In this document: piece after piece, positions 1,865 to 54,380 of the stretch | Numbering within the stretch: the stretch's first letter is position 1 | How the letters are laid out: every line of letters starts with the position of its first letter | From: a virus | Taxonomy: Duplodnaviria > Caudoviricetes | DNA: 64,000 nucleotides | Strand: one strand, 5' to 3' | Virus record (IMG/VR): IMGVR_UViG_3300025939_000002 | Span: 1,435-65,434 of that record | Position numbers and translations under genes: made by a program | The notes under the pieces: generated by a model | Told to the model about the DNA's origin: nothing | Databases searched by the model: none | What the model saw: the letters and a program-made list of their open reading frames with translations, nothing else

Positions 1865-3208
1865 TCAGGCGGTGAGTGGCATCTCTTGCTGCTCGGGCTC
1901 GACGTCACGTTCGACGTCGCAGAACTTGTAGTGGCGGCCGATCCAGTGCGCCTGGACCCAGCCGCCGGGCGCGCCGTTGCGGCCCTTGTCGCAGACGAGC
2001 GTGACGGGGCCGTCCTTCGTGAGGTCCTTGTTCCAGATCAGGATCACGAAGTCGGCCGCATACTCGACGTCGCCCGACTCCTTGAGCGACTTCATGGTCG
2101 GCGGCTTCGCGTTGTCCTTGCGGTCGCGGTTGAGCGACGACACGCCGATGATGGGAAGGCCGAGCTCGCCGGCGAGCGCCTTGAGCGCCCGGGCGTCGTC
2201 GGCAACCTGCTGGGCGCGGCTCTGCCGATCGTTGCCCCCCGAGGCGAGCTGGAGGAAATCGAAGATGGCGAGGGCCTTGTCGTTCGGATGGCGCGCCCGC
2301 CAGACGCGGGCGAGCGCGCCGAACTCGCGCACGCTGCGAACCTTCGTGTTCGCGTAGAACCGCAGCTTCCGCAGCAACGAGCCGGCGTCGTAGAGCCGGT
2401 GCGTGTCGTCGATCGAGACCTTCCCGCTCCGCAGGTAGAACGAGTTGACCTCGCCGAGGTGAGCGAGGGCGCGTTCGGCGAGCTGCTGCTTGCTCATCTC
2501 GAGGTTCACGCAGAAGCACGTGCCCCCCTCCTCCACGCAGAGGCGTAGGCCCGTCTGCACGGCAAGCGCCGACTTGCCTGCGCCGGGATCGGCGCCGAGT
2601 ATCACGAACTCCTCGGGGAAAAAGCCGTTCGTCATCGCGTCGAGCGCGAAGATGCCGGTCTTCACCCCCTCGACGGCGCCGCTACCGCGCGCCTCGATGG
2701 CATCGAGCGCGCCTGCGACGCTATCGCCGAGGAGATCGAGATCGTTGCGCGCCGAGCGGACCACGAGCTTCGAGACCAACGTGGAGTGCTCCTCGACGAG
2801 GCGGTCAGCCTCGACCTCGCCCCAGGCGCGCGAGGCGGTCTCGGCACAGAGCCGAATCAGGTCGCGCTTGGCGGCGGCGTTGCGGACGATGCTCACGTAG
2901 CCGGCTACGTTCTCGGCGGTGGGCACGGCGTTCGCGAGCGTCATGAGGTACCCCTCGCCACCATCGAGCCGTCGGATGACATCGCGGGCGCGGAGCTCGT
3001 CGGCCACGGTGACGGGGTCGAGGGGCATCTGGCGATGCGCGACGGTCGCCATCGCGTCGTAGACCTCGCGGTGGGCGGGGAGAAAGAACTCATCGAGGCG
3101 GAGCTGCGACTCGACAGTTGGCCACAGCGACGGGCGAATGAAGACGGCGCCGAGGACCGACTGCTCGGCCTCGACGTTGTGGGGCAAGGGGCGATCGGGG
3201 AGATTCAT
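1865..3208 (-). CDS. dnaB: replicative DNA helicase, DnaB family
   Basis: N-terminal LPHNVEAEQSVLG; Walker A GADPGAGKS; IFDFLQL, SLKESGDVEYAADFV, KGRNG motifs; ATGA overlap at 3205-3208. Confidence 0.95.
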   Translation of the reverse strand: MNLPDRPLPHNVEAEQSVLGAVFIRPSLWPTVESQLRLDEFFLPAHREVYDAMATVAHRQMPLDPVTVADELRARDVIRRLDGGEGYLMTLANAVPTAENVAGYVSIVRNAAAKRDLIRLCAETASRAWGEVEADRLVEEHSTLVSKLVVRSARNDLDLLGDSVAGALDAIEARGSGAVEGVKTGIFALDAMTNGFFPEEFVILGADPGAGKSALAVQTGLRLCVEEGGTCFCVNLEMSKQQLAERALAHLGEVNSFYLRSGKVSIDDTHRLYDAGSLLRKLRFYANTKVRSVREFGALARVWRARHPNDKALAIFDFLQLASGGNDRQSRAQQVADDARALKALAGELGLPIIGVSSLNRDRKDNAKPPTMKSLKESGDVEYAADFVILIWNKDLTKDGPVTLVCDKGRNGAPGGWVQAHWIGRHYKFCDVERDVEPEQQEMPLTA

Positions 3209-4227
3209 CGCGGCTGGTTGTTGGGGTCGAACCACGGCTCGCTCGCCTTTTTCGCGGCCTTCGCGGGCTCGCGCGAACGGCTATGGAGCTTCTCGCGGAG
3301 CCGGGTGAAGTCGCCGCACCAGCAGCCGAAGCCGAGGGTCGGATTTTCGAGGGCGCCGGTCTTTCCCTCGCCGGCCACGAGCTCGCGGAAGTGCAGCTTC
3401 ATCGTCGAGCGCACGTCCGCCGCCGCCTCGGGCGACAGCCGCTCGGCGAACGTCTCCGCTTTGCCGTCCGACGAGACCGGCGAGTCCCACGGCAACGCCC
3501 CCTCGACGTGCTCGCTCCGGATCTCTCCGTAGAGCCTCAGCAGGTCGTAGCCGACCAGCTTCGGGCCGCTGGGCAGGGGGTGGATCGTCGCGCCGTTGCC
3601 GTTCGCCTCCGGTGCCGTACGGGGTGGCGGTGGTGGCGCTACCAGCTCCGTGGGATCCTGCGCGCGCGCGGGCGGAGGGGGATCAGAGCAGGGAAGAGCA
3701 GAGCAGAGCAGAGCAGATACGTCCGCCGTGCGATGGAATTCCGTCACCGGTCCGACGCCGTTTGGCGTTTGTCCGTCACCTGTCCGATGGACGTCCGACG
3801 GAACGGCGTCGGAAGTCCGCAGCCGCGTCCGAAGTGTGGTGACCAGCGCCTCAAGGCGCGTCACCTCTGCCGCATCCTGTGACTGCTTCGCCCGAGCGAT
3901 CGACTTGCGCACCCGGTCGATTTCCATCCGGATGAGGCCCGCGCCCATGCGCCGCATCCAGTTGTGCACGCGCGTGCCGGCGGCGTCCCGGTCGATGAAG
4001 CCCGCTTTGACGGCGGCCTCGAAGAACCGGCCGTCCATCGCCGACCAGCCGACGTGCAGCTCGATCTCGGCCGGTGTGTAGGCGCTAATATCGCCGTCCT
4101 TCTGAAACTTCGCGCACCAGCGCCAGAGCTTCCAGAGATAGCCCCAGCCCAGTGGGTTGCCGACGAGGGCGCAAAAGCGCACCGTCTTCGGGTGCTCGGG
4201 GAAGTCCTCGTCGGTGTCGATGTTCAC
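3205..4227 (-). CDS. phage replication initiator / replisome organiser
   Basis: Directly upstream of dnaB; wHTH-like N-terminus (HPKT...GYLWKLWRWC); internal repeat array; GGAGG RBS before GTG. Confidence 0.7.
   Translation of the reverse strand: MNIDTDEDFPEHPKTVRFCALVGNPLGWGYLWKLWRWCAKFQKDGDISAYTPAEIELHVGWSAMDGRFFEAAVKAGFIDRDAAGTRVHNWMRRMGAGLIRMEIDRVRKSIARAKQSQDAAEVTRLEALVTTLRTRLRTSDAVPSDVHRTGDGQTPNGVGPVTEFHRTADVSALLCSALPCSDPPPPARAQDPTELVAPPPPPRTAPEANGNGATIHPLPSGPKLVGYDLLRLYGEIRSEHVEGALPWDSPVSSDGKAETFAERLSPEAAADVRSTMKLHFRELVAGEGKTGALENPTLGFGCWCGDFTRLREKLHSRSREPAKAAKKASEPWFDPNNQPR
3695..3831. repeat. putative replication origin: (AGAGC)x4 tandem repeat plus seven GTCCG iteron-like repeats
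   Basis: AGAGC tandem at 3695-3717; GTCCG at 3721, 3750, 3771, 3782, 3793, 3815, 3827, all inside the initiator gene. Confidence 0.6.
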
Positions 4228-4237
4228 GAGACCTCCA

Positions 4238-4750
4238 TCAGGCGACCTCGGCCTCGGGAGCCCCGGCGGCAGCCCCCTCGGCGGTGACGACCGCCAGGCA
4301 GCGCACCTCGCGCACGATGCGCGCGACCACGGCCTTGAGGTCGGGGCGCGCCTCGACCTGCTTGAGCGCGTAGATGACCGGCGTGTGGTCGCGATAGCAG
4401 GCGGCCCGCCCGCAGACCGGGAGGCTGCGGCCCATCGCGCGCATCGAGGCGGCGATCACCCAGCGCGCCTCGATGTGCGGCCCGGACTTCAGAGTCCACC
4501 GCTCGGACAGGTGCCGCGGTTCGATGCCCAGGGCGGTGGCCGCGAGCTCGACGACGTAGGCAGCCATCGCGTCGGTGTGCGCCGACGGCCGGGTGAACTG
4601 GTGGACGACGGTCACCTTCAGCGTCACGCCCGGCAGCTCGAGCTGCGTCTTCACGGCGGTCGCCACCGCCGAGACAGCCTGCTCGAGGCTGCGGGTCGCC
4701 TGGAATTCGGCCTCGAAGACGGCGATAAGCTTCTTTGTGTCGGTCGTCAT
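4238..4750 (-). CDS. DnaA domain-IV-like HTH protein
   Basis: ARWVIAASMRAMGRSLPVCGRAACYRDHTPVIYALKQVE resembles the DnaA C-terminal S(L)PxIG...RDHTTV motif; ATGA overlap at 4747-4750. Confidence 0.7.
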   Translation of the reverse strand: MTTDTKKLIAVFEAEFQATRSLEQAVSAVATAVKTQLELPGVTLKVTVVHQFTRPSAHTDAMAAYVVELAATALGIEPRHLSERWTLKSGPHIEARWVIAASMRAMGRSLPVCGRAACYRDHTPVIYALKQVEARPDLKAVVARIVREVRCLAVVTAEGAAAGAPEAEVA

Positions 4751-5340
4751 GCAGCCTCCTGGGCCCGGCGGGCGCCGGCGATGGGCACGATCGGGGTGTC
4801 GTAGGCGAGCATCAGCGGGTGGCGGGGGGAGCCGTCGCGGTTGAGCCCCAGGCAGTCGGCGATGCTGCAGAAGACCTGCACCCGCGCGCCCTGCGTGAGC
4901 CCGCGCAGCCGAGGCGGGACGCGGCCCCACGCGGCGATGTTCCGGCCGATCAGCGCCGGGCGGGAGATGGCCCATCCGATCGCCGCCTCGTTGTGCTCGC
5001 CGCGGACATCCACGCCCCGGCACGCAGCGCGGACCAGATCGCAGGGGTCCGTGGCCGAGTAGGCGAGCAGGTTGACGATGACGATGCCGCCGGCGCCACC
5101 TCGGCGCGCGAACCCGACGCACTTGCGGACGGTGGGGTCGTCGACGTCGTGGCGAGCCTTCGAGGGGTTGAGCATCGCGAACGTCCACAGCGGGCGGTAC
5201 GTGCTCCAGGGGTCGTCGCCAAAGTAGTCGTCCCACATCCGACCGACGAGGTAGCGATAGCGGTCGTCGGGGCTGGTCACGGCCCAGGCGCGCTCGTCAC
5301 CGCGGGTGACGAGGCCGAGACTCGCGAGGATGGCCTTCAT
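4747..5340 (-). CDS. DUF1643 family protein
   Basis: FAMLNPS...DDPTVRKC...NLLAYSATDP...AAWG...RHPL motifs. Confidence 0.85.
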   Translation of the reverse strand: MKAILASLGLVTRGDERAWAVTSPDDRYRYLVGRMWDDYFGDDPWSTYRPLWTFAMLNPSKARHDVDDPTVRKCVGFARRGGAGGIVIVNLLAYSATDPCDLVRAACRGVDVRGEHNEAAIGWAISRPALIGRNIAAWGRVPPRLRGLTQGARVQVFCSIADCLGLNRDGSPRHPLMLAYDTPIVPIAGARRAQEAA

Positions 5341-5855
5341 GCCGCGTCCTCCTCGCCCGGATGCCGCCGCCGCAGCTTCCCGGTCGCGATCTCCTCGAGC
5401 TGCCGTACCCGCTCGCGCGTGAGCCCCACAAGGCGCCCGACGCGCTCGAGGGTCTCACCGCCGCGGGCCGCGACGTCGAGGACGCAGGTCTCCTCGAGCT
5501 CCCAGGGGTTCCGCTGGGGCTGGTTGAGCTTGAGCGCGCCCGTCGGCGAGACGTCGAGGTAGAGGTGCCACTTGCAACTGACCCACGGGCATGGGCGCAC
5601 GCCGTCGATGCAGTCGCCGCGGGTCCGCGGGCGGCGGACGTCCTCGGGGAGGACCAGGAGGCCGGCGGCCTCGCGCTCCTCACGGCTGAGCGGGCGGTCG
5701 TCCCTGACCGAGCGGCGGCGCCACGCGCGCAGCATCGCCACCGTGGGCGCGGGCTCGTCGGTGATGTCGTTGGCGGGCGCCTCGTTGCGGGCGTAGCCGC
5801 AGACGATGCACGGGCAGGCCTCGTCGAGGGGGTGGTCGTCGTCGCGGAGGGTCAT
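5337..5855 (-). CDS. sigma70 region-4-like HTH DNA-binding protein (myxobacterial RPxTRxxC...PCPWVSCxxHLYLDV type), copy 1
   Basis: PCPWVSCKWHLYLDV; C-terminal TLERVGRLVGLTRERVRQLE HTH. Confidence 0.8.
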   Translation of the reverse strand: MTLRDDDHPLDEACPCIVCGYARNEAPANDITDEPAPTVAMLRAWRRRSVRDDRPLSREEREAAGLLVLPEDVRRPRTRGDCIDGVRPCPWVSCKWHLYLDVSPTGALKLNQPQRNPWELEETCVLDVAARGGETLERVGRLVGLTRERVRQLEEIATGKLRRRHPGEEDAA

Positions 5856-6160
5856 GCGATCCCCTTCCCGCGATGCGGGAACGCGTAGGCGATGGCGTCC
5901 GCGAGGTCGTCGCGGGACTCACGCGGCGGCACCACCCAGCACCCGGGGCAGACATCGCGAAGGCAGCGCCCGTCGCACCGCTGCACCCAGCCGGCGGACG
6001 CGGCCTGGTGGACGGCCACGGCCCGGTCCCAGTCGCTGTCGCGGCCCGTGTAGCAGAGCGGCCCGGCGGCGCCGCAGCCGTCGCACACGACCCCGACGTA
6101 GGTCGACGAGTACTGTCGGCCGTCTCCGCCGGTCCAGCACACGTAGTCGATGCGGATCAT
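5852..6160 (-). CDS. hypothetical Cys-rich protein
   Basis: ATG at 6160 overlaps upstream stop; CDGC and CPGC motifs. Confidence 0.55.
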   Translation of the reverse strand: MIRIDYVCWTGGDGRQYSSTYVGVVCDGCGAAGPLCYTGRDSDWDRAVAVHQAASAGWVQRCDGRCLRDVCPGCWVVPPRESRDDLADAIAYAFPHRGKGIA

Positions 6161-6507
6161 CTGGTCCTCGCTACCGGCCGGTACGGCAAACGAGCGGCGC
6201 CGCGAATCCGCTCGCATGTCGACACTGGGCGGAAATCGGGATCGCCGAACACCAGATCGGCGAAGAGTTCATCGATGACTTCGGGGTCGTGCTGAATGGC
6301 CTGCACGAACCACGACAGGTGGTGGTCCTCTGCGTAGGTGTTCTCAGGAAGACGGCTCGTCCAATACGGACAGCCCGCCTTAACTGCATCGTGATGAACG
6401 ATCCGGAAGCCCGTCAGGATGGTCTGGGGGTCGGTGGAAAGCCACTCGACCCATCCATCATCGAGGTAGCGGATTGGCGTATGACACGCGTCGCACAGGA
6501 GTTTCAC
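6157..6507 (-). CDS. hypothetical protein
   Basis: GTG at 6507 (GTGA overlap) with GGAGG RBS; CDAC motif. Confidence 0.55.
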   Translation of the reverse strand: MKLLCDACHTPIRYLDDGWVEWLSTDPQTILTGFRIVHHDAVKAGCPYWTSRLPENTYAEDHHLSWFVQAIQHDPEVIDELFADLVFGDPDFRPVSTCERIRGAARLPYRPVARTR

Positions 6508-7034
6508 GCTGCCTCCGCGGGAATCTGGTCGCCGAGGCACGTCCACCCCGGCCGGCGCCGACGGCTGAACAGCTCTACATACGGTCCCGCCGATAGCCGC
6601 TCGACGAGGCTGTAGAACACCCCGGGCTTCTCCGAGTGGGCGCGCACGGGGGCAGCGAAGCGCGAGCGGACGGCCCGGTCGGCGGGCTGCACGCGGCCGC
6701 GCACCGCCACGATGCAGGTCTCGTGGGAGGCGCGGACGTAGCGGCCCATCCCGAAGTGGGGCTTGCCGGTGGCGGTGACCTTCTCCCAGACGATCTCGCT
6801 CTTGGCGGTAAAGCCCCAGGCCCGCACCACCCGGTAGGCCTCCTCGACCTGCGACGAGACCCGCCACAGGAACAGCCACGCGTCGTCGGCGACGGGGGGG
6901 ACCGCGAAAGCGCAGATGTCGTCGACGGTCATGACCGCGTAGTTCTTCGCGGCGCCGCGGCTGGGGCCGGGCAGGCGGTCGTTGAAGGCCCAGGGCGGAT
7001 CGGCGACGAGCACGCGGGCGGGCCCGTCGCTCAC
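6504..7034 (-). CDS. MT-A70 family adenine methyltransferase
   Basis: VLVADPPW; LFLW; WGF; GMGRYVRASHE; HSEKP; ELFSRRRRPGWTCLGDQ. Confidence 0.92.
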   Translation of the reverse strand: MSDGPARVLVADPPWAFNDRLPGPSRGAAKNYAVMTVDDICAFAVPPVADDAWLFLWRVSSQVEEAYRVVRAWGFTAKSEIVWEKVTATGKPHFGMGRYVRASHETCIVAVRGRVQPADRAVRSRFAAPVRAHSEKPGVFYSLVERLSAGPYVELFSRRRRPGWTCLGDQIPAEAA

Positions 7035-7354
7035 GACGGCCTCCCCGGGCAGCGGGGCGCCCGGTGGTCGTCGCCGCCGCAGAGGCCGCAGCACTTCCGG
7101 AGGCGCCCGGGGGTGGCCGCCCGGCGCTCGGCCTGCCGGACCCGCCAGGGGCGGCGGACCCGGTCGAGGCAGTCCTCGAACTCCCGCAACAGGGAGTCGA
7201 ATACCATCTGCGACATGCCCTCGAAACGGGCCGCCGGCAATCCTGTGTAGCGCGCCCAGTTGACGAAGTTCGCGACAACCTTCGCGCTACGCCTTCGCTC
7301 GGCCATCACGGCGTCGATCACCACCCGCCGGGGGACGACCGTCACCAGCTTCAC
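7031..7354 (-). CDS. hypothetical protein with C-terminal CCHC zinc knuckle
   Basis: CGLCGGDDHRAPRC; GTGA overlaps at both ends. Confidence 0.55.
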   Translation of the reverse strand: MKLVTVVPRRVVIDAVMAERRRSAKVVANFVNWARYTGLPAARFEGMSQMVFDSLLREFEDCLDRVRRPWRVRQAERRAATPGRLRKCCGLCGGDDHRAPRCPGRPS

Positions 7355-7431
7355 GTCAGCACCAGCACGGCGATGCTGATCACGAGGATCACCACCAGCA
7401 GCGAGATCGCCTCGTTGCGGTCGTCCCTCAC
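7351..7431 (-). CDS. 26-aa single-TM peptide (MRDDRNEAISLLVVILVISIAVLVLT)
   Basis: Read by hand; fills the gap exactly with GTGA overlaps on both sides. Confidence 0.5.
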   Translation of the reverse strand: MRDDRNEAISLLVVILVISIAVLVLT

Positions 7432-7625
7432 GACGCCCTCGCGAGCTGCATCTGGGCGCCGACCTCGCCCGCCATCCGCTCGACGCACGACCGGCAGGCC
7501 TCGGTGTCCTGCCGGGACTCGAGGCGATGGCGAAGAACCGCGACTGCCTCGGCCGCGCCGAGGTGGCAGTACTCACATGCGACCACCAGCGCGTAGTCCT
7601 CCCTCACGAACACGTCGTCCATCAC
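7428..7625 (-). CDS. hypothetical protein (CEYC motif)
   Basis: Small ORF in a coupled operon. Confidence 0.5.
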   Translation of the reverse strand: MMDDVFVREDYALVVACEYCHLGAAEAVAVLRHRLESRQDTEACRSCVERMAGEVGAQMQLARAS

Positions 7626-7628
7626 CCG

Positions 7629-7856
7629 CTACCTCCCGGCTTCGAGCTCGGCGACGAGGCCCAGGACCTCGCCGCGCACGTTGTCCACGCGCACCTGCTC
7701 GCGCCGCGTGGGCCACTCGGCGTACTTGGCGGCCCGCCGATCAGCGCGGGCGAGGATGTCGCGCAGGCGCCAGGCGAGCGCCGCCCGCTGGCGGGCCGGG
7801 ATCGCGCGGGCGTCGACGTTGGGGATCGCCCGGACGGGCAGGTGGAGGGCTCTCAT
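7629..7856 (-). CDS. hypothetical protein
   Basis: ATG at 7856 overlaps upstream stop. Confidence 0.5.
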   Translation of the reverse strand: MRALHLPVRAIPNVDARAIPARQRAALAWRLRDILARADRRAAKYAEWPTRREQVRVDNVRGEVLGLVAELEAGR

Positions 7857-8185
7857 CGCGCGCCTCGTGCGTGCGCCGGGCATCGATCACGGTTCGAGCC
7901 GACGCGGTGGCGATGGATGGCGCAGACCCGTCGGTCGCATGTGCGGCGGCCCTCGACGGGTTCGTCGCAGAGCGCGACCTGCTCGTTCTTGCAGCCGGGC
8001 TCCTCGCAGAGGGCAGAGCGACGTCGGCCCCGGATGCAAACGTGGGCCGCCGAGCCGCCGGCCGCCACGGCGGCCTCGCCCGAGGCGAAGACGCGGCCGC
8101 AGACCAGGCATTCGCCGCCACCAGCCGGCGCCTTCCCCCCCGCCGCGACCTCCCCGCCGCAGGGGCACCGCACCATCCAGCTCAC
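7853..8185 (-). CDS. hypothetical Cys-rich protein
   Basis: Several CxxC pairs; coupled to neighbours. Confidence 0.55.
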   Translation of the reverse strand: MSWMVRCPCGGEVAAGGKAPAGGGECLVCGRVFASGEAAVAAGGSAAHVCIRGRRRSALCEEPGCKNEQVALCDEPVEGRRTCDRRVCAIHRHRVGSNRDRCPAHARGAR

Positions 8186-8535
8186 GCCGCCCTCGCGGGT
8201 TCGAGCGCGAGCTCGGCGGCGAGGATCGCCTTGTCGAGCAGCGCGAGGACCTCATCGCCGCTGCGACCATCGCGCATCTCCCAGTCGACGATGCCGGCGT
8301 AGCGGTCCCGGGGCAGGAACGTCTCGACGAACCCGCAGACGCCGTAGACCGCGACGTGCCAGGCGGCCTCGCTCTCGAGCGGCCCCCTCGCGCCGAGCGC
8401 GCGGTCGAGCACCGCCAGGGCGACGGCGTAGTAGATGCTGACGCCGGCGTTGTCGTCGAACGGCCCCCAGCCGCGCTCGAGGATGATGCCGCGGGCGGCG
8501 TTCAGGACCTCCGCGGCCGTCTGCACGGGCGTCAC
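8182..8535 (-). CDS. hypothetical phage protein (DUF6197-like)
   Basis: EVLNAARGIILERGW...DWEMRDGRSGDEVLALLDKA pattern; GTGA overlap. Confidence 0.55.
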   Translation of the reverse strand: MTPVQTAAEVLNAARGIILERGWGPFDDNAGVSIYYAVALAVLDRALGARGPLESEAAWHVAVYGVCGFVETFLPRDRYAGIVDWEMRDGRSGDEVLALLDKAILAAELALEPARAA

Positions 8536-8621
8536 AGGACGCCCCACAGCCGCAGGAGGGCCGCGACCAGCGCGCCGATGGCCGCGGCGGCGACGAGGCA
8601 AGCCCAGCAGCGCTCCCTCAT
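8532..8621 (-). CDS. small hydrophobic peptide
   Basis: MRERCWACLVAAAAIGALVAALLRLWGVL; overlaps both neighbours. Confidence 0.45.
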   Translation of the reverse strand: MRERCWACLVAAAAIGALVAALLRLWGVL

Positions 8622-8842
8622 CGCCGGGCTCCGAGCGGGAGGGTGAGCTGCCGGTGGATCTGGTCGGCCTCCCGGAGGAGGGCCTCGGGCCCGTAGGTGC
8701 CCGCGGCCGCGAAGGCCAGCTTCATCGCGGCGTCGCCCTCGGTGAGCGCCTCCAGCACCTGGATCGCGGCCCGGGCGGCCCTGAGGGCGTCGCTGGCGGC
8801 CACACACGCGACGGCCCACTGCCCGGTCTCGGCGACGGTCAT
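8618..8842 (-). CDS. hypothetical protein
   Basis: ATGA overlaps with both neighbours. Confidence 0.5.
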   Translation of the reverse strand: MTVAETGQWAVACVAASDALRAARAAIQVLEALTEGDAAMKLAFAAAGTYGPEALLREADQIHRQLTLPLGARR

Positions 8843-9069
8843 GACCGGCCCCCGTGCCGCCACGACCGGGCGATCGCCAGCGCGGCGGCCTCGAGGTGGG
8901 GCTCGGGCGCGACGAGGATGTGCACCTCGCAGTTCGCGCACCGCTTCAGGAAGGCCGGCGTGCTGGGCCGCAGGTCATCGACCTCGACCCGGCGGACCCC
9001 GGCCCCGAGGGCGTGGATGTCCCAGCGGCAGAGGGTCGCGGCGGCGAGGCGCCGGAGGAGGGAGATCAC
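8839..9069 (-). CDS. hypothetical protein coupled to the int stop codon
   Basis: GTG overlaps the int TGA at 9066-9069. Confidence 0.5.
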   Translation of the reverse strand: MISLLRRLAAATLCRWDIHALGAGVRRVEVDDLRPSTPAFLKRCANCEVHILVAPEPHLEAAALAIARSWRHGGRS

Positions 9070-10685
9070 CGTCGACCCCCGCCGACGGCGACCCCCTCCC
9101 CTTCTCCGCGCTCGGCCTCGAGCGCCCGCTCGAGGATCTCGCGCACATGGTCGAGCCGCCCGCGGTCGAGCGCCGCGAGCGCCTGCCGCAGGGCCAAGGT
9201 TGCCAAGGTTGCCATCGGCGCCGCCGGGCCGCCGGTGGCGGCGTCTGCCGCCTCAGCACCCGGTTCGAAGTGGCGCCGTTCCGCGGTTTGTCCGTCGCTG
9301 TCGCCGCCGATCAGCGGCTGACGAGCGTCCGCCGGATTTTCGATTCCCGGTGGGGTCACCGCGTAAGTCATTGACGCCAATTGAGGATTTTCGGCATGGC
9401 AACCCAATGGCAACCCTGCAACGCGTGAAATCGCGGGGTTAGCCGGGCTCGCCGGCGGCGCTGCCGGCGTCGGCACCGGCGCCAGCGGTGGCGCGAGCTT
9501 CAGCTTGCCGACCTCGGCGCAGAGGGCGGGCCAGAGCACCTCGGTCTCCGTGTAGATGTCCATGATGTCTCCCTCCGGTCCGTGCGTCACCAGATGCAGC
9601 AGGTCCTTGTCGGCGCCGTCGGCGCGGCAGAGCGTGATGAACGTCCGGCGAGCGTCGTGCTGGCGACGGTTCCGTAGCCCGAGGCGCTCGAGGTCGCCCG
9701 GCACCGCGGCGCGGGCCTTCCGATTCCGCTCGGGCTCGGCGGTCCGGGCCGGCCGACCGTTGAGGGCCTGCCACATCGTCGAGCGGCTCCGGTAGGTGTT
9801 GCGCCGGCTCGGGATCAGGATGTCGCCCTTGCGCCAGGGCCGCCCCATGAGCTGCTCCCAGCCGGTCGCCAGCCACTCGTCGAGGATCGACTTGAGCCAG
9901 GGATGGACCGGCACCAGGCGGGGGTTGTCCGTCTTCGTCGGTCCGATGGTCCCCTCGTCGCTATCGTAGGAGCGCTCGACCGCGAGCTGGGCGAGCGGCA
10001 GCATCTCGGGCTGGTAGTCGTCGACGAGCAGCGCCGAGATCTCTCCGAAGCGGCACCCGGCGAGGAACAGCGCCGAGTAGAACACCCGGCGGTCGTAGGG
10101 GACGAGCGGCGAGGTCAAGAGGAGCACCACCTCCGCGCGCGTGAACTGCGCCTTACGCCGCCAGCCGGGGACCGCGTCCTTTTTTTGCGGCATGTCCTCC
10201 TCGGCAATCTTCCCGCAGGGGTTCGTGTCGAGTAGGCCCCGACGGATGGCCGCGCGGAAAATCGGGTTGAGCGTGTAGAAGACGTGGCGCTGGGTCCGCG
10301 GGGCGAGCCGGCCCGCGCCCCGAAGAATCGCGGCGACGTCGTCACCGGTCACGGCGTCGAGGCGCTTCGCTCCGATGAGCGGCAGGATGTAGTCGCGCAA
10401 GCGCTGCTCGTAGGTGCCCGCGATCTTCTTGCCCTGCTTCGTCGCGAGCCACTGCTTCGCCCAGCGGGCGAACGTCATCGGCCCGGTCTCGTCGTCGCCC
10501 TCGAGCGTGGCGGCCGCCTCGCGCCGGCGGGTGAACTCGGCGAGGATCCGCTTGGCCTTGCCCTCCTCCTCCGGCCCCCGGCAGCTCGTCGCCTTCTGTT
10601 TCTTGCCGCCGCCGGGCCCCGGGTAGACGATCGTCCAGACGCGCCCGCGGCGCAGGAAGAGGAAGGGCTTGAAGGGCTCGGCCAC
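9066..10685 (-). CDS. int: tyrosine recombinase/integrase with a long C-terminal extension that contains attP
   Basis: Catalytic set GCRFGE (R), HDARR (HxxR), VTHG (H), DIYT (Y); arm-binding and core-binding N-terminal domains. Confidence 0.93.
   Translation of the reverse strand: MAEPFKPFLFLRRGRVWTIVYPGPGGGKKQKATSCRGPEEEGKAKRILAEFTRRREAAATLEGDDETGPMTFARWAKQWLATKQGKKIAGTYEQRLRDYILPLIGAKRLDAVTGDDVAAILRGAGRLAPRTQRHVFYTLNPIFRAAIRRGLLDTNPCGKIAEEDMPQKKDAVPGWRRKAQFTRAEVVLLLTSPLVPYDRRVFYSALFLAGCRFGEISALLVDDYQPEMLPLAQLAVERSYDSDEGTIGPTKTDNPRLVPVHPWLKSILDEWLATGWEQLMGRPWRKGDILIPSRRNTYRSRSTMWQALNGRPARTAEPERNRKARAAVPGDLERLGLRNRRQHDARRTFITLCRADGADKDLLHLVTHGPEGDIMDIYTETEVLWPALCAEVGKLKLAPPLAPVPTPAAPPASPANPAISRVAGLPLGCHAENPQLASMTYAVTPPGIENPADARQPLIGGDSDGQTAERRHFEPGAEAADAATGGPAAPMATLATLALRQALAALDRGRLDHVREILERALEAERGEGEGVAVGGGRR
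9198..9215 (-). repeat. attP arm-type integrase sites (two TGGCAACC, minus orientation)
   Basis: GGTTGCCA at 9198-9205 and GGTTGCCAT at 9207-9215. Confidence 0.75.
9339..9360 (+). other. attP core: tRNA 3-prime end TTCGATTCCCGGTGGGGTCACC (probably tRNA-Glu-like)
   Basis: T-loop TTCGATT, T-stem CCCGG, acceptor strand TGGGGTC, discriminator A, CC; no 5-prime tRNA half present. Confidence 0.85.
9396..9416 (+). repeat. attP arm-type integrase sites (two ATGGCAACCC)
   Basis: Direct repeats at 9396-9405 and 9407-9416, inverted relative to the pair at 9198-9215. Confidence 0.75.
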
Positions 10686-10696
10686 CGGTCACCTCC

Positions 10697-11125
10697 CTAT
10701 TCGTCGTCGTTGAGCAGCCGATCGACCTCGGCAGCGATGTCGTCGTCGTCGTCGTTCGCTGGCCCCGGTCCCGGTGACACGCCGCCAGCGGCCAGGGACG
10801 AGCCGCTCGGCGGCCCCTTGCGGCTGCGAGCCCCCTTCGCCATCTCGGCCATCCACCGGTCGAGCTCCGACCGGGCGATGCGGTTGCCGTGGAGCCCCGA
10901 CGTCGTCAGCGTGCCCATCGCGATGTGCCGGGTGAGCGTCCGCTTGTGGTACTTCGCGATCGCCGCCGCGTCGCGGAGCGTGAGGTAGTCCTCACCGTCC
11001 GCGGCCCGCGGCGGCATCCTCATGGCCTCGAGCGCCTTGGGCAGCGCCTTCGGGAGCTGGTCGGCGAGCGCTGCGCGCACAGCGCCCTCCACGATCGAGC
11101 CGAGCTGGGATTCGAGGGAGCCCAT
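10697..11125 (-). CDS. xis: excisionase-like HTH (HTH_17/MerR-like) protein
   Basis: YLTLRDAAAIAKYHKRTLTRHI...RIARSELDRW; immediately upstream of int. Confidence 0.7.
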   Translation of the reverse strand: MGSLESQLGSIVEGAVRAALADQLPKALPKALEAMRMPPRAADGEDYLTLRDAAAIAKYHKRTLTRHIAMGTLTTSGLHGNRIARSELDRWMAEMAKGARSRKGPPSGSSLAAGGVSPGPGPANDDDDDIAAEVDRLLNDDE

Positions 11126-11190
11126 CACGTCCCCTTCTCCGCGTCGTCGAACATCGACATGCCTTCGTCCCTCTCGTTGGCTTGGTCCAC
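11125..11190 (-). CDS. 21-aa leader peptide coupled to xis
   Basis: GGAGGAGG RBS, GTG at 11190, TGATG overlap with the xis ATG. Confidence 0.35.
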   Translation of the reverse strand: MDQANERDEGMSMFDDAEKGT

Positions 11191-11306
11191 GCGCTCCTCC
11201 TCCGGCGAAGGATCGCACCGACACACCGCCCCTGCCCAACTCCGCCCGCGGTTGCTCGCCTCTGTCACCGCTTGCCAGGAGGCTCGCAATGTCTGCGCGC
11301 GACTGC

Positions 11307-11336
11307 ACGGTAACCTTTAGGAGACAGCCCTGACAA
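11307..11336 (-). promoter_or_regulatory. sigma70-type promoter for xis-int (TTGTCA-N18-TACCGT)
   Basis: Hexamers read directly; same 18-bp spacing as other promoters in the window. Confidence 0.6.
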
Positions 11337-11419
11337 GGCAGAAAAGCTCGACGTCGTCCACTTTTCATCGATCGCGATCGACAGCGTAGCGCGCGCTACG
11401 TGAGTTCATCGCGACGGCT

Positions 11420-12299: not shown

Positions 12300-12626
12300 A
12301 TGAGCGCTCGCATCGCCTGTGTGGCGTTTTTGCTCCTGGCCGCCTGCCCCCACCCCCTGCCCAACCCCGGCCAGGTGGTCCTCACCTGCGGGATGGCCGA
12401 GGCGAGCGATCCGAAGGTCGTCCAGGCGGTGCTCGACGCCCTCGCGGCGCCGGACTTCCGTGGCAAGCTGGCGGCCCTCGTCGGCGCCCTGCCGGGGGTG
12501 ACCGCCGAGGTCATCGCCTGCGTCCTCGAGAGCTACCTCGGCCGGCCCGCCGCCACCCCTGAGGACAACGGCCGGCACGAGCGAGCCCGCACCTACCTGC
12601 GTGAGCACCACTACGAGGCCCCCTGA
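12300..12626 (+). CDS. lipoprotein
   Basis: Signal peptide with lipobox LLAA-C. Confidence 0.7.
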   Translation: MSARIACVAFLLLAACPHPLPNPGQVVLTCGMAEASDPKVVQAVLDALAAPDFRGKLAALVGALPGVTAEVIACVLESYLGRPAATPEDNGRHERARTYLREHHYEAP

Positions 12627-13405
12627 TGGGCCGCGCTTTCGGCTGGTTGAAGGACCCGGCGAAGCAGCCGGGCGAACCCCCCGACCACGACGCCCGGACC
12701 ATCCTGGCCTCCACGCCGATCCCCCGAGCGGCGTCGAACCGACGGCTGATCGTCGACGTCCTCGACCAGGGCCAGCTCGAGAGCTGCGTCGCCAACGCCA
12801 TCATGCAGGCGATCCGGGCGACGCACGTCCGCGACGGGGTGACCGCCCCGCGGCTCGGCAGCCGCCTCTACGGCTACTGGTGCTCGAGGGCCTTTCACGG
12901 CTCGACCCGCGTCGACAGCGGGACCTACCTGCGCACGTTCTTCCAGGCGCTGAACAAATTCGGGTTCTGCCCGGAGGAGCGCTGGCCCTACGACGCCGGC
13001 CGGTTCGCCGACATGCCGCCGAACGCGGCCTTCCGATCCGCTTTCGACCAGCACTCGCCGACCAGCTACAAACGGATCACCTCGGGGGGCGTCGACCGGA
13101 TCGCTGACCTCAAGCGGGCGATCGCCGCCGGGTACCTCGTCACCTTCGGGACGCTGGTCACCGAGGCGTTCGTCCAGGGGGATCTCGGCACGGAGCCCCT
13201 CGCCCCGCCCCCGCAGCAGGACCACATCGCCGGCGGTCACGCCCTGTGCGCCGTCGGCTACGACGGCGATGTCTTCGAGGTGGTGAACTCGTGGGGGACC
13301 GGCTGGGGTGACAACGGTCTCTGCTACATGGCGAGGGAGTACTTCATGTGGGGCTACACCGACGACGTCTGGGTGGTGGCCGAGGCGCCGAGGTACAGCG
13401 AATGA
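12626..13405 (+). CDS. C1 (papain-like) cysteine peptidase
   Basis: DQGQLESCVANA (Gln, catalytic Cys); GGHA (His); VNSWGTGWGDNG (Asn). Confidence 0.92.
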   Translation: MGRAFGWLKDPAKQPGEPPDHDARTILASTPIPRAASNRRLIVDVLDQGQLESCVANAIMQAIRATHVRDGVTAPRLGSRLYGYWCSRAFHGSTRVDSGTYLRTFFQALNKFGFCPEERWPYDAGRFADMPPNAAFRSAFDQHSPTSYKRITSGGVDRIADLKRAIAAGYLVTFGTLVTEAFVQGDLGTEPLAPPPQQDHIAGGHALCAVGYDGDVFEVVNSWGTGWGDNGLCYMAREYFMWGYTDDVWVVAEAPRYSE

Positions 13406-54205: not shown

Positions 54206-54380
54206 GCCCGGGATCGTCCTGCTGGAGCGGAGGGCGCCCAAGATCGTGCTGCGGGCCCGCGAGTCGAACGCGGTGTCTCCGGTGGTGAACCGGCGGGGTG
54301 CCGTCCCCCTCAGCCCGCACGCAACCCAGGGGCGCGACGGGCGAGGGCTCCCCCGCCGGCCCAGCCCCCGGGCGGCACGC

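Follow-up and report, generated by a model that had tools for sequence, protein, structure and literature searches.

The integration systems of Mx8 and Mx9 are widely used in myxobacteria. On integration the Mx8 Int protein is said to exchange 112 residues for 13, and Mx9 reportedly has its attP within int and a tRNA-Gly gene as its target. In BPs, Brujita and Charlie, attP reportedly lies inside the repressor gene and the tail that is lost is said to be an ssrA-like degradation tag, and in SSV the integrase gene is itself partitioned, being split by attP. According to a review (PMC6070905), attP of Mx8 is situated inside int, and the recombinant gene that results from integration has a new 3' end, the enzyme being modified and not inactivated; Mx9, which integrates by means of a single int gene, follows a similar principle of attachment-site recombination. 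The Islander paper treats the Mx8 and SSV integrases as extending across attP.

We analysed a window of 64000 nucleotides (64 kb), which corresponds to positions 1435-65434 of an IMG/VR record of 65434 bp that has direct terminal repeats and is rated a complete virus genome; as the record represents a complete phage genome, an intact attP was expected. The window very probably belongs to a temperate phage related to Mx8 whose functional attP is embedded in the 3' part of the phage's int gene, and the features concerned are collected in Table 1. The int-rewriting design was already known from Mx8 and Mx9, and the present case is a well-supported further example of it, with a new target (tRNA-Glu) and a new arm motif. 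As in Mx8, a homologous integrase gene carries the 3' end of a tRNA gene as an antisense core downstream of the catalytic tyrosine codon, with an excisionase gene directly upstream and same-strand early genes after int; the target in Mx8, where integration converts IntP into IntX, is tRNA-Asp, whereas here it appears to be tRNA-Glu(CTC). Mx9, which we liken to this phage by description and not by sequence, also differs in its target tRNA. The locus is like BPs, Brujita and Charlie in that attP lies in a coding sequence and integration would change a protein C-terminus, but it is int and not a repressor that is rewritten, and the Int tail ends in GGGRR without a tag of the -LAA/-AA type (the tails of relatives are Arg-rich or end in ..AVS and are likewise not ssrA-like). 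With attP in int and no degradation tag, the arrangement is not integration-dependent immunity of the BPs/Brujita type. As in the SSV (fusellovirus) integrases, the int ORF runs across attP; unlike in SSV, all of the catalytic residues would stay in the attL-side gene.

Table 1. Features of the integration module and the genes downstream of it (positions are those of the window)
Feature	Position	Strand	Description
xis-like ORF	10697..11368	-	HTH_17 excisionase-type HTH at aa 128-175; phrog_66; ends 11 nt before the int start
int	9066..10685	-	539-aa predicted lambda-type tyrosine integrase, Mx8 Int homologue
linker, Int residues 413-491	9213..9449	-	AF2 pLDDT <50; variable columns in A2; holds right arm and core
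right (int-proximal) arm, putative	9397..9415	+	two TGGCAACC 11 bp apart, 36 bp from core
attP core, 22 bp, predicted	9339..9360	+	identical with tRNA-Glu(CTC) 3' end; int reads it antisense as (A)VTPPGIE
detached part of int, predicted	9066..9338	-	residues 450-539 (90 aa) and stop, to other prophage end in the in-silico attL/attR
left (int-distal) arm, putative	9198..9214	-	two TGGCAACC 9 bp apart, 124 bp from core
two-helix hairpin, Int residues 494-529	9099..9206	-	LRQALAALDRGRLD..REILERAL; present only in phage-form Int
orf76	8839..9069	-	GTG start overlaps int stop (GTGA, 9066-9069); GC3 0.97
DUF6197	8182..8601	-	downstream of int
MT-A70 methyltransferase	6504..7094	-	downstream of int
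sigma70-r4 protein	5337..5855	-	downstream of int
DUF1643	4747..5340	-	downstream of int
DnaB helicase	1865..3235	-	downstream of int; same-strand block spans 1865..8601

The best named relative of the integrase is Mx8 Int, with 38% identity over aa 25-400 and an E value of 1e-67 (tblastn and BLASTP), and the Pfam domain found in the protein is Phage_int_M. An AlphaFold (AF2) model with a mean pLDDT of 77 displays an N-domain made up of a three-strand sheet and a helix (aa 8-59), followed by a helical core-binding domain and a catalytic domain that extends to residue 393. The best Foldseek matches of this model were the full-length lambda Int chains 1z1b and 5j0n (approx. 400 columns), followed by Tn1549 Int, XerD and Cre; Brujita Int is also among the matches. 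The catalytic residues R212, K251, H343, R346, H368 and Y378 are invariant in our alignment of 25 full-length Int relatives (A2) and all lie upstream of the core, the codons of which specify residues 442-449, on the 3' side of the codon for Tyr378. Judged by its modelled structure, Int is a lambda-type heterobivalent tyrosine recombinase; it resembles lambda Int in the AF2 fold, in the RKHRHY set and in the short repeats that flank the core at distances like those of arm sites; in lambda itself, by contrast, attP lies outside int and Int is unchanged by integration.

The core is the 22-mer TTCGATTCCCGGTGGGGTCACC, which comprises the T-loop, the 3' T-stem, the 3' acceptor strand, the discriminator and CC of a tRNA gene. 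Alignment with host tRNA-Glu genes places the start of the identity between phage and tRNA exactly at the T-loop (TTCGATT) and its end after the discriminator and CC (..CACC), and the 5' T-stem and all of the upstream tRNA parts are missing from the phage. No complete tRNA overlapping the 22-mer was called by ARAGORN, and an Rfam scan around the attP site gave sub-threshold noise only. A search for the exact 22-mer in one genome per prokaryote species found it in at least 120 places and, among the matches listed, every one that we checked was the 3' end of a tRNA-Glu gene. The high-GC carriers include a Myxococcota MAG (L005), a Polyangiaceae MAG (L043) and a ‘Deltaproteobacteria’ MAG (L055), together with a fourth, 71%-GC MAG that is labelled only ‘uncultured proteobacterium’ (L088). 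In the three MAGs that we scanned, the matched gene is tRNA-Glu(CTC) and lies just 3' of tRNA-Gln. These matches support the tRNA-Glu(CTC) gene as the probable target of the phage.

The 22-mer is not specific to one host, since in the species-genome scan it also forms the 3' end of tRNA-Glu in Saccharibacteria, Bacillota and Gammaproteobacteria. As it ends tRNA-Glu in several phyla, our assignment of the host leans on the GC content, which is approx. 71% across the whole 64-kb window, and on kinship with the myxophage integrases; on this basis the host is probably a myxobacterium. The candidate host MAG that carries a matching tRNA-Glu, which belongs to the Myxococcota, contains a single Int-like match (L122, on G001:C66). 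This is 44% identical over residues 175-403, but it is a remnant that has lost its N-terminal part and has no tRNA alongside, and we rejected it as an integrated form.

The core is surrounded by an unusual cluster of short repeats. The octamer TGGCAACC occurs four times in the window when both strands are counted, compared with approx. 1.1 expected, and all four copies fall within 218 bp around the core, two on the minus strand (9198-9205 and 9207-9214) and two on the plus strand (9397-9404 and 9408-9415). By our own Poisson estimate the chance of such clustering is far below 1e-6. Copies with one mismatch are dispersed through the window, and only one of these, at 9864, is near the site. The right arm is translated in int as G-LP-L-GCH (residues 425-431), its two repeat copies being read in two different codon phases (TTG-CCA and GGT-TGC-CA), and the left arm is translated as M-ATL-ATL (residues 492-498), which is the beginning of the C-terminal hairpin. 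The codons imposed by the repeats (GCA, TTG, CCA, GGT and CAT) account for only 3-11% of synonymous use in the phage genome, and GC3 drops from approx. 0.9-1.0 to 0.40 over Int aa 421-435. Since the right-hand copies lie in different codon phases and use rare codons, we read the conserved unit as repeated DNA and not as a repeated peptide.

Similar repeats, of the form TGGC[A/T]ACC, flank a different tRNA-like core on both sides in two relatives of the phage. In L172, with an Int 46% identical with ours, the core is preceded by GGTTGCCA/GGTAGCCA and followed by TGGCTACC/TGGCAACC, whereas L196 (Int 48% identical) has two copies of GTTGCCA 10 bp apart, encoding different peptides, and three copies of TGGCAAC on the other side. 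The left-arm block is nearly invariant in A2, and GLPxGCH is kept among the relatives. The repeats are putative arm-type sites for the Int N-domain. The repeats around the Mx8 core are, by our own reading of its sequence, of a different type, GTGACAGCG in place of TGGCAACC. Between positions 4000 and 4260 of Mx8 (L267) we found three copies of GTGACAGCG around the tRNA-Asp core, two int-proximal and one distal, as well as GTTGCCA-like words, and these repeats and words are possibly the Mx8 arm sites.

These results agree with an earlier note on this DNA, made from the letters alone, in every detail of what it had noticed here. It had described a tRNA 3' end lacking its 5' half and lying inside int, with a core that encodes VTPPGIE; the 22-mer is indeed present with no tRNA called there, and the whole site falls within the int ORF. 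Its paired inverted repeats proved to be the only four copies of TGGCAACC in the window, arranged as two inverted pairs, and its guess of tRNA-Glu as the target is borne out by the tRNA-Glu(CTC) 3' ends of the Myxococcota, Polyangiaceae and ‘Deltaproteobacteria’ MAGs. The comparison of the core with Myxococcota tRNA genes that it had proposed thus returned exact matches in Myxococcota-type MAGs.

We then recombined the phage in silico with the tRNA-Glu genes of L005, L043, L055 and L088, and each of the four gave the same 454-aa Int, consisting of residues 1-449 followed by PGFLG and ending VTPPGIEPGFLG (...VTPPGIE-PGFLG, then a stop). The predicted attL stop codon, TGA, is the antisense of tRNA positions 35-37 in the anticodon loop. 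The loss of approx. 90 C-terminal Int residues on integration, which had been foreseen from the sequence, is supported by this exchange of 90 aa for PGFLG, with which the integrated relatives described below agree; the corresponding exchange reported for Mx8 is 112 residues for 13, compared with 90 for 5 here.

As we picture the reaction, the Int N-domain would bind the four TGGCAACC arm-type sites, two per side and inverted, and the core-binding and catalytic domains would act on the 22-bp core, which the phage has in common with the tRNA-Glu(CTC) gene of the host; the strands would probably be exchanged at the T-loop boundary of the identical stretch. Integration would restore the tRNA 3' end using phage DNA and would leave xis and the shortened int (454 aa) beside the tRNA, and the other prophage end would receive the last 90 codons (half of the linker and the hairpin) together with orf76, which is translationally coupled, and the early genes. 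Free phage and prophage would in this way produce two different integrases, of 539 and 454 aa, and by analogy with IntP and IntX of Mx8 the change of form is expected to alter the activity or the site preference of the enzyme. Between the C-terminal hairpin and the tail of Mx8 IntP no similarity could be detected, and the functional analogy therefore lacks the support of homology in the exchanged part.

Integrated forms were found among distant relatives. In a set of 94 loci with 29-48% Int identity, the int ORF reaches a stop in 82, and in 19 of these 82 it does so within a tRNA gene encoded on the other strand. Since an int ORF that ends within an antisense tRNA gene marks an integrated form, we interpret these 19 relatives as integrated. 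Their tRNA genes are Asp(GTC), the type that Mx8 targets, in 15 cases and Gly(CCC), Ser(GCT), Val(TAC) and Glu(CTC) in one case each; the Gly(CCC) example (L207) recalls Mx9. In the Glu(CTC) example (L239) int ends ...ATPTGIEPVLPT and a stop (...TPTGIEPVLPT) within the tRNA gene, its TGA being the antisense of positions 35-37, and both phase and stop are identical with those predicted in silico for the window. In integrated forms at tRNA-Asp(GTC) and tRNA-Glu(CTC) alike, the stop TGA is the antisense of U35, C36 and A37, and many integrated int ORFs (L186-L204, L222, L256 and others) stop at a distance of 38-41 nt from the 3' end of the tRNA, e.g. with ..RDLNPRPPA followed by a stop. In a further relative of 455 aa, P0036 (43% identity), the right-arm peptide and a WAQQGSN core are followed by LRPTD and a stop, an end that fits reading into a T-stem.

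Full-length relatives keep the same layout with other cores. A protein search yielded 33 of these, of 494-584 aa, with 42-70% identity and 96-100% query coverage. The same C-terminal hairpin ends all 33, most of them retain GLPxGCH, and in the 25 that were aligned both GLPxGCH and PMATLATLALRQAL..RGR.D...ILERA are conserved. The segment between these blocks falls into at least five classes, VTPPGIE, ATPAGFE, RPQRDSN, WAQQGSK/N and DPxGxRTR, and from the peptides we infer that each class would represent a T-loop and acceptor end read antisense, with three phases in use. At the DNA level an antisense tRNA-like core is visible in the window, in L172 and in L196; the L196 core differs from a tRNA-Glu(TTC) 3' end by at most two mismatches, and the L172 core had no match in three Myxococcota MAGs. 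In one relative of 537 aa (P0022), back-translation of the core-region peptide, PRVRIPLGS, gives a T-arm in sense orientation, GGTTCGAATCC, which suggests that its tRNA fragment is oriented with int, opposite to that of all the other relatives.

We tentatively propose, as an idea that we consider slightly less likely than not, that in this Int clade a disordered linker between the catalytic domain and the hairpin accommodates all of attP, with the arms dual-coded, the core a swappable cassette and the hairpin a sensor of the integrated or free state. If this is true, the phage lineage could retarget to new tRNA genes without harming the enzyme, and the hairpin, as a built-in sensor, would set the direction or the efficiency of recombination. 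The hairpin helices span residues 494-507 and 511-529, with pLDDT values of approx. 70-87 in the AF2 model, and their columns are nearly invariant in A2. Long open frames arise easily in DNA of 71% GC. We argue that the int tail is translated, on the basis that there is no in-frame stop and that the hairpin is in frame in 33/33 full-length relatives, despite variable linker lengths and cores in three phases. A separate 48-aa gene on a 1012-bp JGI contig (P0114), which starts at MATLATLALRQAL, encodes a product 76% identical with this hairpin, and it could be the orphan tail of an attR junction, or the short contig may have given rise to an artefact.

Other explanations of these findings have to be considered. 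That the 22-mer arose by chance or survives as a fossil, the phage integrating elsewhere or never, is scarcely credible to us. It would accord with the fact that searches of 185579 species genomes, 401 Myxococcota genomes and IMG/VR found neither attL nor attR for this phage or for any relative with >50% Int identity; the Int search of the 401 Myxococcota genomes gave a best match of 40% identity and no junction, the search with the left-arm 18-mer gave only chance matches in unrelated phyla, and the searches with core-plus-arm patterns gave no matches. Against it, however, the exact 22-mer sits precisely between the only four copies of TGGCAACC in the window, relatives combine this layout with different tRNA cores, both xis and the catalytic residues are intact, and integrated relatives exist. 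A more serious view accepts the attP as real but gives the C-terminal swap no regulatory meaning, the frame simply being open across attP and both forms of Int behaving alike. Residues 413-491 are indeed predicted to be disordered and are unconserved, every catalytic residue is upstream of the core and the tail is unrelated to that of Mx8, yet the hairpin (494-529) is among the best-conserved parts of Int and is held in frame throughout the full-length relatives, the overlap of the int stop with the orf76 start is kept in L172, and the recombinant Mx8 Int has altered properties according to the review (PMC6070905). We consider an exchange without consequence improbable.

Somewhat less improbable, though still doubtful in our opinion, is that the arrangement serves mainly transcription and translation, so that integration uncouples orf76 to DnaB from xis-int and silences these genes in the lysogen. 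From xis to DnaB the genes lie on one strand throughout, with short gaps or overlaps, the orf76 start lies within the int stop both here and in L172 (where the 4-nt overlap is kept), and integration at the core necessarily puts the two groups of genes at opposite ends of the prophage. However, temperate phages normally rely on a repressor to keep their early genes off, and uncoupling may therefore add little. The operon structure is also conjectural; a sigma-70 promoter scan found no promoter, a result that is uninformative because such a scan is ill-suited to the presumed host. In Mx8 the gene order is the same, yet no such role is given to it in the review (PMC6070905). The earlier note had suggested both that integration separates the downstream genes from the xis-int promoter and that this silences a replication operon: the separation of orf76-DnaB stands by geometry, whereas a common operon driven from xis-int and its silencing remain inference, and ‘replication operon’ is a generous label, since DnaB is present but DUF6197, the MT-A70 methyltransferase, the sigma70-r4 protein and DUF1643 lie between it and int.

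Our preferred reading, a working attP within int whose use rewrites the integrase, extends the Mx8/Mx9 design to a tRNA-Glu target and to a sizeable uncultured clade, in which the design is kept while the tRNA core changes. The segment of approx. 2.3 kb that holds xis, int and attP could serve as a second, orthogonal integration vector for myxobacteria with this tRNA-Glu(CTC), and the natural pair of Int forms (539 and 454 aa) is suited to testing the role of the C-terminal tail. With regard to the first gene of this segment, the xis-like ORF is open for 223 aa and xis is conserved in L172 too, but only aa 116-221 are conserved there; as conservation is limited to this part, the real xis start is probably internal. 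A gene for a papain-family (Peptidase_C1) protein at 12626-13405 (+) neighbours the integration module and runs in the opposite direction. The phage also carries a tRNA-Val(CAC) gene at 54248-54319 (-), which is the sole tRNA gene in the window.
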